Shown in pieces: positions 1-4,840 of a stretch of 34,205 nt of DNA. Within the stretch, counting starts at the first letter, position 1. Every line of letters starts with the position of its first letter. The notes below the pieces were generated by a model. It made no database searches and was not told the DNA's origin. It worked only from the letters and a program-made list of their open reading frames with translations. The position numbers and the translations under genes were made by a program. The stretch lies in the IMG/VR virus record IMGVR_UViG_2579778753_000004; one strand, given 5' to 3'. The DNA comes from a virus (taxonomy: Duplodnaviria; Heunggongvirae; Uroviricota; Caudoviricetes).

Positions 1-188
1 AATTTTGCGACCACGGTGCTTAACAAACTGGCGGAGAAGCTGGCCAAAGACCAGAACGGCGCAGATATTCCTGACCCGGCGCTCTTTGTCAAAAACCTTG
101 GTTTGGGAGATGCGAGCGGATACGTTGGTAGGCTGCTAAAAATACAGGTATTCACTGCCAGCGGGACAGTGACAAAAACGCCAGGCGC
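1..188. repeat. Left copy of inverted repeat (IR-L), coding, truncated by window edge
   Basis: Positions 1-188 are the exact reverse complement of 1681-1868 by hand alignment; identity stops at 189/1680. Both copies encode the same peptide NFATTVLNKLAEKLAKDQNGADIPDPALFVKNLGLGDASGYVGRLLKIQVFTASGTVTKTPGA. Confidence 0.9.
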
Positions 189-771
189 AAAAAAATGGCG
201 AATTAAATGTCTCGGTGGGGGGGGCGGCAGTTCAGCTGCACCGGCAACGGGTAGTAACGAGGTTTCCGTGAGTAACGGGGGCGGCGCAGGGGCATATGCT
301 GAGGGCATTTATGACGTATCGTCAATAACAACGGCGTCAGTCGTCATCGGTTCAGGCGGTGCAGGAGGAACGGCGGATTCAATATACGGCGCTGACGGCG
401 GAGCTAGCTCAGTTGGTTCGTTTATTTCATCGCCCGGCGGGAAAGTTGGATTACCCGCCGGCCCGGCAAACCCACCATTTCAGCCCGTGGCCAATACTAA
501 CAGCGATGGCCCGACTGGGTGGAATATTGTCGGCTCATCTGGAGCAGGGGCAGAACCAGCCGTAGCTGTTACATATAGCTATGCCGCTGGCTCGCGTGGT
601 TCAAATAGTATATTTGGGGTAGGCGGATCGATTCCTGCAATTAATGACCCGGCAAATCCCGGTGGGGGCTATGGTTCTGGAGCATCCGGCTGTTCGAATG
701 GCTCATCCCAACCAGCTAAATCAGGCGCAGCGGGACGCCCGGGAATCGTAATCATTGAGGAGCTGGCATAA
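1..771 (+). CDS. Alternative tail-fibre C-terminal module (silent orientation, 5'-partial, Gly-rich tip)
   Basis: Reading frame is open from position 1; the first 63 codons are the IR copy of the fibre constant region, then a unique Gly/Ser-rich C-terminus. No own start context; it would join the fibre N-terminus only after inversion. Confidence 0.6.
   Translation, partial: NFATTVLNKLAEKLAKDQNGADIPDPALFVKNLGLGDASGYVGRLLKIQVFTASGTVTKTPGAKKWRIKCLGGGGGSSAAPATGSNEVSVSNGGGAGAYAEGIYDVSSITTASVVIGSGGAGGTADSIYGADGGASSVGSFISSPGGKVGLPAGPANPPFQPVANTNSDGPTGWNIVGSSGAGAEPAVAVTYSYAAGSRGSNSIFGVGGSIPAINDPANPGGGYGSGASGCSNGSSQPAKSGAAGRPGIVIIEELA
85..110. other. Putative serine-invertase crossover site (hix/gix-like), left
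   Basis: TTTGTCAAAAACCTTGGTTTGGGAGA; its reverse complement shares the AAACCAAGGTTTTTGA core with hixL as I recall it (TTCTTGAAAACCAAGGTTTTTGATAA). Confidence 0.55.
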
Positions 772-953
772 TGAGTAATTATGCGCTAGTTAAAAATGGC
801 GTCGTTGAAAATGTTGTTGTATGGGATGGCACTGGAGACATTTTCGATGATTATATTACTGTGAATATTGACGACATATCGGCTGGTATCGACTGGACAT
901 ATGACGGAGAGGCATTTGCCCCTCCGCCAGAAATTACTCCGCAGGAGGCGTAG
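771..953 (+). CDS. Small protein coupled to the alternative fibre tip (putative cognate assembly chaperone)
   Basis: ATG overlaps the TAA of the upstream module (ATAATGA); 60 aa; converges on the 3' end of the minus-strand assembly gene. Confidence 0.4.
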   Translation: MSNYALVKNGVVENVVVWDGTGDIFDDYITVNIDDISAGIDWTYDGEAFAPPPEITPQEA

Positions 954-1365
954 GCCATTCAATATCTGGCGCACCGGAAGTATCGACCAGCTCCAGTGCG
1001 TCCAGATAATCCAGCCACAAATTATATTGCACCAGTTCCTCACCTTTCAGGCGACCAATCGCCGCTTTACCAGGCCATTGCTTACTGTTTATGTATTCGT
1101 TGACCTGATTAATCAATTGCTGCTTTTTCAGTTCGGCTGCGGCAATTTGTTCCTCATGAGTTGGCGGTGGAATATCAATCCATGCAGGCATTCCGTCGAT
1201 GACACCTCTGTATTTTCCTTCTGGTGCTTCCTTCATAAATTCGGCAGCAACAGTGTCGTCAATTTCGATTCCATCATCGGGCCATTCGCCGGATTCCTGA
1301 TAAGCGATTTTAAGCTCCACAGGGAAAAACGCATTTTTATCGGCACTGAAAATATATTTCTGCAT
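934..1365 (-). CDS. Tail fibre assembly protein (lambda Tfa / Mu U family)
   Basis: C-terminus ...LVDTSGAPDIEWPTPPAE resembles the conserved Tfa C-terminus; sits immediately downstream of the fibre gene. Confidence 0.75.
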   Translation of the reverse strand: MQKYIFSADKNAFFPVELKIAYQESGEWPDDGIEIDDTVAAEFMKEAPEGKYRGVIDGMPAWIDIPPPTHEEQIAAAELKKQQLINQVNEYINSKQWPGKAAIGRLKGEELVQYNLWLDYLDALELVDTSGAPDIEWPTPPAE

Positions 1366-1367
1366 TT

Positions 1368-2258
1368 CTACCGTCCTATCGAAATATAACTGAATCTGTA
1401 TTGCTGTGAGATATCACTGGTTGCCACACGCCACGCTGAATTACTGATATGTTCAAAATTTACAGACAAAACCTGCGGGGCAGGAATCGACGGGTCTGAC
1501 TGAACGGCATCAGACATAACACTGACTGAAACCATCGGCTGATTAGGGAATGGTATAGGGAAGTGTCCACTGATAAAGCGGGTCGTGTTTCCTGCAAAAG
1601 TGCCAAACTGAACAATATATCCACCTGGTAGCCTGAACCATCCCGAACCAGAAGCGAATGCTCCCATATCCGGTATCTGAGCGCCTGGCGTTTTTGTCAC
1701 TGTCCCGCTGGCAGTGAATACCTGTATTTTTAGCAGCCTACCAACGTATCCGCTCGCATCTCCCAAACCAAGGTTTTTGACAAAGAGCGCCGGGTCAGGA
1801 ATATCTGCGCCGTTCTGGTCTTTGGCCAGCTTCTCCGCCAGTTTGTTAAGCACCGTGGTCGCAAAATTCGGATCGTTACCGAGGGCATCCGCCAGCTCTT
1901 TAAGCGTATCCAGCGTCTCAGGGGCGCTGCCTGCAAGCGCTGCAAGTGCTTTGGCCACAAACTCAGTCGTCGCCAGCTTCTTGCTGTTATCGCTATTTGC
2001 AGGCGTGGGCGCTGTTGGCGTGCCGGTGAATGTCGGGCTGGCTTTCGGTGCGTACTGGGTATGCGGGTCTGCTGCCGCGATGTGTTTCGCAAGATCAGAA
2101 CCGCCTTTTTCAACCTGTTGCTTCAGGTACAGCGTGCGGCTGGCCAGTTGTTTACCCTGACGGTTAGAAATTCCGTCAGGCCCACCCAGAACGGGGTCAG
2201 AGACCTCAATCTGGTAGATGCCTTCTTCCCACTGCGGGGTTTCAGGTAGGTTTGCCAT
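1368..2258 (-). CDS. Tail fibre protein, currently expressed variant
   Basis: 296 aa; contains the TLDTLKELADALGNDPNFATT motif typical of fibre shafts; spans IR-R and a unique C-terminal tip. Confidence 0.8.
   Translation of the reverse strand: MANLPETPQWEEGIYQIEVSDPVLGGPDGISNRQGKQLASRTLYLKQQVEKGGSDLAKHIAAADPHTQYAPKASPTFTGTPTAPTPANSDNSKKLATTEFVAKALAALAGSAPETLDTLKELADALGNDPNFATTVLNKLAEKLAKDQNGADIPDPALFVKNLGLGDASGYVGRLLKIQVFTASGTVTKTPGAQIPDMGAFASGSGWFRLPGGYIVQFGTFAGNTTRFISGHFPIPFPNQPMVSVSVMSDAVQSDPSIPAPQVLSVNFEHISNSAWRVATSDISQQYRFSYISIGR
1681..1868. repeat. Right copy of inverted repeat (IR-R), inside the expressed tail-fibre gene
   Basis: Reverse complement of 1-188; may extend past 1868 because the partner is cut by the window start. 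Confidence 0.9.
1759..1784. other. Putative serine-invertase crossover site (hix/gix-like), right
   Basis: TCTCCCAAACCAAGGTTTTTGACAAA, the inverted partner of 85-110, lying inside IR-R. Confidence 0.55.
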
Positions 2259-2260
2259 AA

Positions 2261-2839
2261 TTAACTGCTCCCGTGGTTATAGCTACCGTCATAGTTGACG
2301 GTGTTGTTGTAGCGAATGGCGACAGACTGATACTCAAGGCTCGCCAGATGGCAGCGGGCCGGAGCAAAGGCAGCGAGCGTCTGGCGTAAAAGTGCTGCCT
2401 GATCGTTAGTAATGGGCTGCTGAAGGATGACGCGATAGACCGCCCAGGCTTCTGCATCGCCATGGACGAAAAGCCCGTTGTACGTGTGTTTGCCGTCGTA
2501 GCCAATCTGGCCAGTGCCTTCAATCAGATCCACTTCGCCGAAGCCGAAACGGCGGATAATTTCCCGGATTGACCACGGCGTCCCTTTATAGCGGTGCAGC
2601 TCGATAGCAGATTTGATAAGCATGCGGCGTACATCGTCCGATTCCGCCAGCTCCCAGCCATCGCCAAACAGCGAGAACTGCTCGCCCAGCCATGGCAGCG
2701 CGGAACTGTCGACGATATCGACGAGATAGACCATCAGTACGCTCAGGTCGATGTTATCCAGCCGCCCGGCCAGTTTTCCCAGCGTTCTGAGGCTGATATC
2801 ACCCTCAAGCGGCGGCGGGAGTTGTAGCGGCTCAGCCAT
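2261..2839 (-). CDS. Tail protein I-like (P2 gpI / Mu gp48 family)
   Basis: 192 aa between baseplate J-like and fibre genes, the conserved P2/Mu order. Confidence 0.65.
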   Translation of the reverse strand: MAEPLQLPPPLEGDISLRTLGKLAGRLDNIDLSVLMVYLVDIVDSSALPWLGEQFSLFGDGWELAESDDVRRMLIKSAIELHRYKGTPWSIREIIRRFGFGEVDLIEGTGQIGYDGKHTYNGLFVHGDAEAWAVYRVILQQPITNDQAALLRQTLAAFAPARCHLASLEYQSVAIRYNNTVNYDGSYNHGSS

Positions 2840-3935
2840 CGGACACCCCGGTCATGTTAAGAGTGATCGCCGTGCAGTTTGCCCATTCGTTTTCTGCCAC
2901 CACCTTCAGCACCGGTGTCACCAGTTCGACCTGGTAGACCCCGGCAACGGACAGCACGCTGATAATCTGGCTGGGGACAATATCGCGCCCCAGCGTGGCG
3001 GTACGGGACGCTACCCAGTTCTGTATGGCGCTGTTGGCGTTGTCCTTTATAGAGTTAGCATCCTGGTCACGATAGATAGTGATGTTGGCTTCAATGGCGT
3101 AATCCACCTGCACAGGTGTTTTAGCCCGCACGGTATCAGTGAGCGGCCTGACTTTTTCGTCCGAGCATAAACTCTCTACAAGCGTAAGGATGCTGTCGTC
3201 CGGCAAGCCGGTGCTGAGCAGCGGATACAGTTCTACAGTGCCGGGAACCGGGGAAAGCACGGCAACATCGACAATATTGGGATGGGCCTGCATGGCATGA
3301 AAGCGGTATGCCATACGGCTTCCGGCGTTGGTGAATGATTCCGGGGCCAGTTTGATACGCTCGCGGAGCCTGTCATTGTCTTCCTGCTCAGAACCGCCAG
3401 AACTGGCCGCCATATTGGTCACCTGCAGGTCGACGTTATCAATCTCATCGAGCAACTGACGGACCTGCGCAGGCTGCCAGCCGTTGCCTGCGGCTCCCGG
3501 CTCGGTACAGGTGGCCGTGGCATTGACAAGCAGCAATCCGGCTTTCAGCACTACGTCCGTATCGGTTGCAAAAATAATGCTGTCGGAAGCGCTGACGCGG
3601 GTACCTGCCGGAATCAGCACATCAATGGCCAGTTCCTCATCCACGGAGAACTGGAGCGTGGTGGTGGCAGGCTGCGCGGCCAGTCGGTATACACCAACCA
3701 GTTCACCGAGGTAATCAATCATCGGCTCACGGGCAAAGGCGACCAGATTCTGTTTGGCCGCTTCCTGCGCCGCCACCCTGACCAGCATTTCGCGGTATGC
3801 CCACAGGTCAATCAACAGGCGCTCAGCCTGAGCGGGGTATAGCGTCTTGCCAGTTGCGGCTTCGTACTGTGCAATCATTTCAGCCGTGATTTTGTCAGCA
3901 TCACGTTCAATAAAATCGGGTTCTGTCAGCGCCAT
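2832..3935 (-). CDS. Baseplate J-like protein (P2 gpJ / Mu gp47 family)
   Basis: 367 aa, position and size; overlaps neighbours by a few nt. Confidence 0.7.
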   Translation of the reverse strand: MALTEPDFIERDADKITAEMIAQYEAATGKTLYPAQAERLLIDLWAYREMLVRVAAQEAAKQNLVAFAREPMIDYLGELVGVYRLAAQPATTTLQFSVDEELAIDVLIPAGTRVSASDSIIFATDTDVVLKAGLLLVNATATCTEPGAAGNGWQPAQVRQLLDEIDNVDLQVTNMAASSGGSEQEDNDRLRERIKLAPESFTNAGSRMAYRFHAMQAHPNIVDVAVLSPVPGTVELYPLLSTGLPDDSILTLVESLCSDEKVRPLTDTVRAKTPVQVDYAIEANITIYRDQDANSIKDNANSAIQNWVASRTATLGRDIVPSQIISVLSVAGVYQVELVTPVLKVVAENEWANCTAITLNMTGVSDG

Positions 3936-4327: not shown

Positions 4328-4840
4328 TCAGTGGGAATGGTGATTAGAGTTCGGGCCGTCAGAGAGCATGCTGCCTGTCGAGTGGGCATTGCCGTTGATT
4401 TCAAGGTTGCCGTTCACCGTGGTGGTGTCAGCGGTCAAATCAATGGTTTTCCCCTTCAGGCTGATACCCACTGCAACCTCGATCACCACATGCTCGATAC
4501 CACCTTTGACTGTCAGCGTATGGGTCGCACGGTTATAGCTGAACTCTGCGCCATCCGCGTATTTCGTGCCCCGGACATGTTTGTCGCTGAACGGCGGTTT
4601 ATCGACTTCTGAGTACACCGCGCCCAGAATGACACCATCCTCGCCGTTGGCATCGAGCAGCACTTCAACCTGCTCCCCCACGTCAGGGAGCCAGTAATCC
4701 TTGTTATCCTGGGTATTGCGCTGCAGCACGTTAAGCCAGTTAGTGCGCAGGTTATCGCATTCCGGCAGACGAACGCGGGCCTGAACCTTGTCGGCATCGA
4801 CGGCGCTGACCGTACCGACCTGACGAGTGACGCCTGTCAT
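4328..4840 (-). CDS. Baseplate spike/assembly protein V-like
   Basis: 170 aa, gpV-like, followed by W and J homologues. Confidence 0.7.
   Translation of the reverse strand: MTGVTRQVGTVSAVDADKVQARVRLPECDNLRTNWLNVLQRNTQDNKDYWLPDVGEQVEVLLDANGEDGVILGAVYSEVDKPPFSDKHVRGTKYADGAEFSYNRATHTLTVKGGIEHVVIEVAVGISLKGKTIDLTADTTTVNGNLEINGNAHSTGSMLSDGPNSNHHSH

Follow-up and report, generated by a model that had tools for sequence, protein, structure and literature searches.

A tail fiber locus with two unequal tip-partner pairs

We analyzed a sequence of 34,205 nucleotides (nt), called the window throughout, from a virus of the Caudoviricetes (Duplodnaviria; Heunggongvirae; Uroviricota; IMG/VR record IMGVR_UViG_2579778753_000004). 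The left end of the window carries a tail fiber cassette with two alternative fiber C termini (tips), each followed by a small partner gene, arranged tail to tail between inverted crossover sites. This study concerns the glycine-rich tip on the plus strand, referred to as the Gly tip, and the gene for a protein of 60 amino acids (aa) directly downstream of it, which an original prediction made from the DNA sequence had proposed to be a silent alternative tip with an unusually small partner. The features of the locus are as follows.

1..188, no strand: left arm, truncated at the window edge, of an inverted repeat of 188 bp without mismatches; 100% complementary to 1681-1868 and equal to positions 4391-4578 of the related locus L065
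86..111, plus strand: left copy of the crossover site, TTGTCAAAAACC/TTGGTTTGGGAGAT, encoding the "...KNLGLG" junction (backbone comparison, L065)
1..771, plus strand: alternative fiber C terminus without its own start codon in the window (Gly_rich_2, phrog_863, and PDB profile matches)
757..762, plus strand: Shine-Dalgarno-like GAGGAG, 8 nt 5' of the ATG of the 60-aa gene and within the end of the tip open reading frame (ORF) (read from the sequence)
771..953, plus strand: gene for the 60-aa protein, phrog_14370; predicted N-domain of a Tfa/gp25-type chaperone with no C-terminal helical domain
934..1365, minus strand: full-length Tfa, 143 aa, partner of the gp53-like tip (Pfam Caudo_TAP, E value of 9e-34, 116.9 bits)
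1368..2258, minus strand: expressed tail fiber, 296 aa, with Gp53-like_C at its C terminus
1368-1679, minus strand: gp53-like C-terminal tip of the expressed fiber (Pfam Gp53-like_C)
1680-1760, minus strand: 27 residues (DASGYVGRLLKIQVFTASGTVTKTPGA) of the expressed fiber that come from the Gly-tip module and stand in place of the native 12-aa linker (comparison with relatives)
1681..1868, no strand: right arm of the inverted repeat, carrying the right crossover site at 1758-1783 (repeat comparison)

The plus-strand frame is open from base 1 through a TAA at 769-771. The ATG of the 60-aa ORF shares bases with this stop codon (TAATG), which couples translation of the partner to that of the tip. 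The 60-aa and 143-aa ORFs have the sizes originally described, and the 20-bp tail-to-tail overlap of the two downstream genes at 934-953 was confirmed. The arm at 1-188 is made up of 85 bp duplicated from the constant part of the fiber, followed by the crossover site (26 bp) and by ~77 bp from the start of the Gly-tip module. Promoter and terminator predictions in the region gave counts at chance level, and an Rfam search of it returned no family; a promoter belonging to the silent cassette and an RNA element in the overlap were rejected on these grounds. We infer from relatives that the Gly tip is silent in the window. Silence is not provable within the window itself, because the repeat and the open frame run past its left edge and the invertase lies outside it.

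The Gly tip resembles the receptor-binding domains of Pam3 gp24

The unique part of the tip (190-768, 193 aa) consists of 22.8% Gly, 15.0% Ser, and 14.0% Ala. The total of 51.8% compares with 30.1% in the unique part of the expressed tip, in agreement with the original description of Gly/Ser/Ala dominance, and with 11 to 40% in all window ORFs of ≥150 aa. The tip matched the Pfam family Gly_rich_2 (PF21722) at 34.2 bits, above the gathering cutoff of 24.3, over profile positions 3 to 223 of 226, and it also matched tail fiber families in PHROGs, including phrog_863. As a single sequence, it found no relevant match among PDB sequences. A 21-member tip profile searched against 177,635 PDB sequences retrieved only 7yfw_a and 7ypx_A, both of which are gp24 of cyanophage Pam3 (E value of 3.3e-7). 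This alignment spans the gp24 domains from end to end (residues 71 to 273), and its compositional bias is high. In the Pam3 structure determined by cryo-electron microscopy, the matched gp24 domains form the receptor-binding "flame" of the fiber (PMC9608196). T-even gp38 gave no direct match to the tip in the PDB sequence and profile searches.

The nearest characterized relative was found by tblastn in Klebsiella phage SCNJ1-Y, whose 297-aa fiber TFP_Y is 65% identical to the tip over its whole length. TFP_Y is gp24-like, carries host-range mutations within its Gly-rich domain, blocks lipopolysaccharide (LPS)-triggered DNA ejection, and recognizes LPS (PMC12671077). By analogy, LPS is a plausible receptor for the Gly tip. 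"Pam3 fiber-like" adhesins have been described as a receptor-binding class of Klebsiella phages, with outer membrane protein targets inferred for some members (bioRxiv 10.64898/2026.05.12.724579), and these targets make the assignment of LPS to the Gly tip a tentative one. Judged by sequence, the Gly tip belongs to this described Pam3 gp24-like class and is not exotic. Its predicted fold is unrelated to that of the expressed tip (Gly_rich_2/Pam3 gp24-like versus Gp53-like_C), which supports the view that the cassette offers a different receptor-binding module; the two tips may, as originally suggested, also differ in receptor class. Some database entries for fibers with the Gly tip (P0031 and P0064) bear the source name "carbohydrate kinase," apparently a misannotation.

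The 60-aa protein corresponds to the N-domain of a larger chaperone family

The 60-aa protein had no match in NCBIfam or in Pfam, where Caudo_TAP was included and E values up to 1 were considered; in PHROGs it matched phrog_14370, a family whose function is labeled unknown. A word-indexed search found close relatives only. An exhaustive profile search (E values up to 0.001) retrieved 873 cluster representatives (clusters at 50% identity) that fall into two size classes, ~53 to 79 aa and ~127 to 156 aa. Among the best 150 of these 873 representatives, ~90 are 50 to 79 aa long and ~45 are 100 to 160 aa long. In the longer members, the matched domain always lies at residues 1 to ~55. Several long forms have the C-terminal half of Caudo_TAP, and others have DUF4376 or other helical C termini. 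The proteins P0232, P0282, P0159, P0167, and P0177 illustrate an N-domain joined to at least three C-terminal modules (Caudo_TAP, DUF4376, or a helical module with the motif "AQSEYDRAS...WTxYRKxLRxY") or to none.

The long form at locus L020 shows the relationship within a single protein. Its residues 1 to 54 are 54% identical to the 60-aa protein, its residues 55 to 131 are 73% identical to residues 66 to 142 of the window Tfa, and it matches both phrog_188 (tail fiber assembly) and phrog_14370. Therefore, the 60-aa protein has its end precisely where the two domains of such a chaperone meet. It ends just past a "PPPE" linker, and the C-terminal helical domain of the long relatives is absent. 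A diverged copy of the N-domain of the neighboring 143-aa Tfa was also considered as the source of the 60-aa protein and was rejected, since alignment of the two N-domains with hhalign gave a probability of 0.2%. N-domains of Tfa proteins have been described as tip specific and their C-domains as generic (PMC9608196), and the sequence-unrelated N-domains of the two partners in the window fit this rule.

Direct searches of the 60-aa family against PDB sequences returned nothing relevant. An AlphaFold2 model of the 60-aa protein built with 70 family members had a predicted local distance difference test (pLDDT) score of 91.9 and showed a small beta structure. When this model was compared with the PDB by Foldseek, 7ypx_a (gp25 of Pam3) ranked first with a probability of 0.91 and a template modeling (TM) score of 0.59, and the next match had a probability of 0.07. 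The structural alignments with Pam3 gp25 had 25 to 27% sequence identity and covered the region that grips gp24. In Pam3, gp25 residues 1 to 55 form a beta-sandwich "tentacle" that binds gp24 where its TNF-like and Gly-rich domains meet, and residues 64 to 162 form a helical bundle that trimerizes and caps the fiber (PMC9608196). Against predicted viral structures, the model matched mostly uncharacterized phage proteins of 60 to 165 aa, a few of them named tail assembly chaperone or Tfa.

The profile searches proposed with the original prediction thus led from the tip to Pam3 gp24 and from the 60-aa protein to a large family that includes Caudo_TAP long forms. The suggestion of a different maturation factor holds in part. 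The 60-aa protein has an N-domain of its own, sequence-unrelated to that of the 143-aa Tfa, but it comes from the same chaperone lineage and lacks the C-terminal helical domain. Sequence homology to the N-terminal part of a Caudo_TAP/Tfa subclass, together with the match of its model to the N-domain of Pam3 gp25, places it as a truncated member of the Tfa/gp25 chaperone lineage, specific for the Gly-rich tip type, and not as a new kind of factor.

The exact 60-aa protein occurs on 509 contigs, and its cluster at 90% identity covers well over 2,000 contigs from Escherichia coli, Klebsiella, Serratia, and others. The protein is labeled "hypothetical protein" in nearly every case and "tail fiber assembly protein" once. 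A tblastn search of 50,697 phage records gave one match, in Klebsiella phage Kp4865-2. The family lives mainly in prophages and metagenomes, and sequenced phages, which are mostly lytic, are a poor source of it. At locus L050, from position 3501, a 1,101-aa ORF rich in GS(F/L)TGS repeats begins with the N-domain motif (…VIENIVIWDGTGSL…) over its first ~25 residues; this may be a partner domain fused to a large fiber-like protein or a chance short match, the tblastn alignment covering query residues 1 to 24 only.

The N-domain tracks Gly-rich tips and is under purifying selection

Gene association was assessed at 51 loci with homologs of the 60-aa protein at 35 to 100% identity; a scan of genome contigs gave 4 loci. 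At ~46 of the 51 loci, the homolog is preceded by an ORF that ends at its start or no more than 18 nt before it, and the last 200 residues encoded by this ORF are 26 to 34% Gly and 50 to 57% Gly plus Ser plus Ala. A stop/start overlap is usual at these loci, and the remainder have a gap of 12 to 18 nt. Thirteen of the 21 nonredundant upstream tips passed the Gly_rich_2 threshold alone. Short forms (~24 loci) and long forms (~27 loci) both follow Gly-rich tips. These sequence comparisons indicate that the N-domain tracks the tip type and that the C-terminal part is exchangeable or absent. Short forms were also found in distant metagenomic phages, beside intact Gly-rich fibers of 300 to 316 aa.

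At the loci L056 to L058, the 60-aa gene is the sole fiber partner gene. Its neighbors in L056 and L058 are a 342-aa Gly_rich_2 fiber upstream and only a ~90-bp stub of a Tfa 3' end downstream, and in L057 it follows a 326-aa Gly_rich_2 fiber in a Mu-like tail module. The stub in L056 (3684-3775; also in L058) matches window positions 954-1040, the 3' end of the window Tfa gene. L056 and L058 look like a once-invertible cassette frozen with the Gly tip ON after loss of the other half and the invertase.

The 60-aa genes of the window and L056 encode proteins that are 78% identical. The proportions of synonymous (pS) and nonsynonymous (pN) differences between them are 0.50 and 0.115, and the ratio of nonsynonymous to synonymous substitution rates (dN/dS) is 0.15. 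The two alleles share a common end (...PPPE[IL]T..EA followed by the stop codon) and a common downstream sequence and therefore descend from the same truncation. Elsewhere, near-identical alleles had 0 or 1 synonymous differences, and synonymous sites of the 57%-identical L059 allele were saturated.

The L059 segment (2785-3913; also in L060 and L061) belongs to a P2-like prophage and pairs a silent Gly tip with a 53-aa homolog. Its expressed 460-aa fiber is followed by a 61-aa gene that matches positions 1 to 62 of the 145-position phrog_5400 profile. Both partner genes of this segment therefore look N-terminal only.

The cassette is an invertible switch found in unrelated fiber backbones

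The two copies of the 26-bp crossover site, at 86-111 and in mirror orientation at 1758-1783, lie within the fiber reading frame and are hix/gix-like, with a resemblance to hixL. Six unrelated fiber backbones differ from the window before approximately position 97, which is the center of the site, and are identical to it afterwards, the expected footprint of crossover at the site center. The cassette was present at 99% identity in an e14/Mu-like prophage located at dusA, in a lambdoid side-tail-fiber prophage, and in a 97-kb plasmid that encodes a 751-aa tail fiber with the Gly tip as its in-frame C terminus. A recombinase-family gene adjoins the cassette in all three backbones, and a serine invertase (PF00239 plus PF02796), which is outside the window, lies beside it in L001 to L003, L063, and L064 to L067.

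Both orientations of the switch were observed. The Gly tip is ON in L002 and L064 to L067, and the gp53 tip is ON in L003 and L063. The ON state of the window's own phage is present in public databases as the 386-aa protein P0028, of which residues 1 to 192 are identical to the window fiber and are followed by the Gly tip. The gene order at the P0028 loci is baseplate W/J/I, fiber, 60-aa gene, opposite-strand Tfa with a silent gp53 tip, and an invertase with resolvase and HTH_7 domains. In total, the Gly tip is joined at "GLG" to at least 10 different fiber N termini, giving proteins of 305 to 419 aa. Because the module is fused in frame to these backbones and occurs in the ON state, it is neither degraded nor limited to the silent state. 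Two doubts raised with the original prediction are removed: the 60-aa ORF is strongly conserved in relatives, and the Gly-rich module is intact, with a frameshift only in the distant P2-like L059. We conclude that the cassette is an ordinary Din-type (Gin/Cin/Pin-like) invertible tail fiber switch of a known kind.

The prophage at dusA in E. coli CFSAN061769 (L001 3718-4680) has its Gly tip facing the fiber N terminus. In RefSeq, the N-terminal part is listed there as a pseudogene (truncated stfP) and the tip as a 200-aa coding sequence of its own, so that this copy either has been disrupted or is one gene that was divided in annotation.

The window departs from a simple inverted state

Window positions 1-1680 are 100% identical to L065 4391-6070, and positions 1681-2400 are 100% identical to the reverse complement of L065 3859-4578. 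This exact comparison led us to reject the idea that the window is a simple inverted state of the canonical locus. Site-specific inversion would place the native linker EAAKRDVGTGDN, which is present in HH107, S115, CFSAN061769, and L064 to L067, before the gp53-like tip and would place the invertase on the left. What the window shows is an inverted duplication, joined at 1680/1681, that comprises the constant region, the crossover site, and the 27 codons with which the Gly module begins. The expressed fiber therefore reads ...NLGLG-DASGYVGRLLKIQVFTASGTVTKTPGA-QIPDMG..., an in-frame chimera. The exact 296-aa chimeric fiber was absent from ~15 billion database proteins, and none of the complete E. 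coli genomes carries window positions 1-2300 colinearly.

The prophages of E. coli HH107 and CFS3292 are 100% identical to the window over 2300-27000 (24.7 kb). In HH107, the segment L063 1229-4270 holds a different cassette with a 185-aa conventional silent tip and a full-length 197-aa Tfa, and the presence of another cassette in an otherwise identical prophage points to recent cassette exchange. The HH107 Tfa ends in ...TPPAVQAR in place of ...TPPAE. A genuine fold-back rearrangement could explain the duplication in the window, as could an artifact of assembly or of the contig end. The identification of the tip and its partner is unaffected by this anomalous architecture, as a consequence of which "silent" and "expressed" apply to the window only by analogy with its relatives.

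A proposed role for the 60-aa protein and its alternatives

We propose that window positions 1-953 (plus strand) are probably the unexpressed half of a Din-type cassette, combining a Pam3 gp24-like tip with a stand-alone chaperone N-domain that would help the tip to fold; this reading draws on sequence homology, the structural model, and analogy with Pam3. The receptor-binding tip would comprise a TNF-like domain and a glycine-rich domain. The 60-aa protein would be the N-terminal beta-sandwich of a Tfa/gp25-type chaperone that has lost the linker and the C-terminal helical trimerization domain. Recombination of the two 26-bp sites by the serine invertase would fuse the tip in frame, at "...NLGLG," to the constant 162-residue fiber N terminus. 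After inversion, the fiber promoter would read through the constant region, the Gly tip, and the 60-aa gene, so that the partner would be cotranscribed and translated. Like the Pam3 gp25 tentacle, it would then bind the side of the TNF-like and Gly-rich domains of each nascent subunit and aid folding. Trimerization would be left to the N-terminal part of the fiber itself; in Pam3, the N-terminal part of the fiber trimerizes without the chaperone (PMC9608196). The analysis itself demonstrates the layout of the locus, the homology of tip and partner, the co-occurrence of their genes, purifying selection on the 60-aa ORF, and the occurrence of an ON state; physical binding, a chaperone rather than a structural role, and LPS as the receptor are the steps that we infer.

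Several observations weigh against this proposal. The AlphaFold2 model of the tip, built from a shallow alignment, reached a pLDDT of only 37.6, so that the structure prediction originally suggested for both partners gave a confident result for the 60-aa protein alone. The genome of SCNJ1-Y (50 kb) contains no homolog of the N-domain even with HMMER filters off (best E value of 1.1, versus 7.5e-30 for the window), and TFP_Y was expressed alone in an active form (PMC12671077). Tips of this class therefore do not always need the partner. In L059 to L061, the silent Gly tip 5' of the 53-aa homolog is frameshifted. Part of the purifying-selection signal could come from recombination with long-form alleles. 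Owing to the anomalous architecture, the present state of the window may not be a working switch. A literature search found no experiment on any short-form member of the family.

The same homology and co-occurrence data are compatible with a 60-aa protein that stays on the side of the Gly-rich tip in the virion as a stable accessory subunit, in the way that Tfa of Mu and lambda can, aiding stability or receptor recognition. In the Pam3 model it is the helical cap that must release, and without it nothing forces dissociation; furthermore, the chaperones of Mu and Ur-lambda are present in mature phages (PMC9608196). Pam3 gp25, however, was undetected in virions (PMC9608196), and we regard retention as rather unlikely, although it is the most credible of the alternatives. 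We find it harder to accept that the 60-aa ORF is a nonfunctional leftover of a full-length Tfa gene that lost its C-terminal domain and persists because the deletion is recent. A likely cause of such a deletion would be the unstable palindrome formed by tail-to-tail Tfa genes with near-identical C-domains. The ORF does end at the boundary of N-domain and linker and then runs into the antisense of the last codons of the neighboring Tfa, the tail beyond "PPPE" is variable, and intermediates of 87 aa (P0152) and 93 aa (P0150) are known; P0152 looks like an internal deletion that kept only the last ~15 Tfa residues. That a Gly tip can work without the 60-aa family, as in SCNJ1-Y with TFP_Y, also favors a leftover.

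A recent, decaying gene is difficult to reconcile with a dN/dS of 0.15 at a pS of 0.50, obtained from two alleles with a common truncation and a common Tfa stub downstream. Furthermore, ~60% of the best 150 family representatives stand alone at 50 to 79 aa, including those of distant metagenomic phages, the start-stop overlap or 12- to 18-nt spacing is conserved, and the gene is the sole partner in L056 to L058. Together, the selection estimate, the sole-partner loci, and the wide spread argue against a dead remnant. The absence of Pfam and NCBIfam matches and the near-universal label "hypothetical" would also suit a protein with no part in fiber assembly, such as a moron or exclusion factor riding in the cassette. 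This is very improbable given that the protein has the fold and sequence of a chaperone N-domain and is tied, with translational coupling, to Gly-rich tips across very different phage backbones. A stand-alone chaperone N-domain devoted to the Gly tip is thus the reading that we prefer.

Comparison with known systems

The closest structural counterpart is the gp24/gp25 pair of Pam3 (PDB 7YFW/7YPX; PMC9608196), in which the partner gene likewise lies directly downstream of the fiber gene and whose gp25 is the best PDB match of the 60-aa model over the gp24-gripping region. Pam3 gp25 differs in its length of 162 aa and its C-terminal four-helix trimerizing and capping domain, which the 60-aa protein does not have. 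The Pam3 fiber gene is fixed and encodes an alpha-helical N terminus, whereas the tip described here is part of a swappable cassette on an enterobacterial Mu/P2-like fiber. Similarity is low in both parts, at 25 to 27% identity in structural alignments of the partner and at the level of profile detection only for the tip. With the Tfa/gpU family (PF02413; Mu Tfa, PDB 5YVQ; lambda Tfa), the 60-aa protein shares its position after the fiber gene, translational coupling, and a variable, tip-specific N-domain. It differs in having neither a Caudo_TAP match nor the C-terminal half that defines the family, and its N-domain is sequence-unrelated to that of the adjacent 143-aa Tfa.

The cassette resembles the G segment of Mu (S/U, S'/U', gin), the C segment of P1 (cin), and the P segment of e14 (pin) in having two fiber C termini, each with a downstream partner gene in tail-to-tail arrangement, short inverted crossover sites, and, in relatives of the window, an adjacent serine invertase. 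It was found in backbones of the e14-like, P1-like, and lambdoid types. In the known segments, both partners are full-length Tfa proteins; here one has only 60 aa, and a clean flip is replaced in the window by a duplicated arm of 188 bp and an expressed fiber that is a chimera.

TFP_Y of SCNJ1-Y (Jedunavirus; PMC12671077) shares the Pam3-like class and 65% identity over the whole unique tip, but it is the product of a fixed gene in a lytic phage that has no invertible segment and no 60-aa homolog. T-even gp38 (Salmonella phage S16 gp38, PDB 6F45) has a lattice of Gly-rich motifs and variable distal loops similar to those of gp24 (PMC9608196). It is a separate protein docked on gp37, unlike the Gly-rich module described here, which is the covalent C terminus of the fiber.

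Implications for fiber maturation

Switch and tip both belong to kinds already described, and the 60-aa protein is an N-domain-only variant of the Tfa/gp25-like chaperones that is widespread and conserved, yet unnamed. It may, as we tentatively suggest, typify a large unnamed class of minimal partners, single beta-sandwich "clamps" on Pam3-like Gly-rich tips that have no helical trimerizing cap. Current models treat this cap as the core of Tfa/gp25 function. If the suggestion is correct, maturation or stabilization of the tip would require no more than the N-domain, and full-length Tfa genes would give rise to short forms again and again, perhaps owing to the palindromic, unstable nature of tail-to-tail Tfa pairs in invertible segments. 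Proof that the two travel together would test the model, derived from Pam3 gp25 and Mu Tfa, in which a C-terminal helical bundle drives fiber trimerization, and it would give a name to a protein that thousands of E. coli and Klebsiella contigs list as hypothetical. Tips and chaperones are the parts that are swapped when phages, tailocins, and phage-derived delivery systems are retargeted, and a tip is usually moved with its cognate Tfa. If this pairing were shown, a common enterobacterial Pam3-like tip, probably LPS binding, and its 60-residue partner would make up a very compact portable module.

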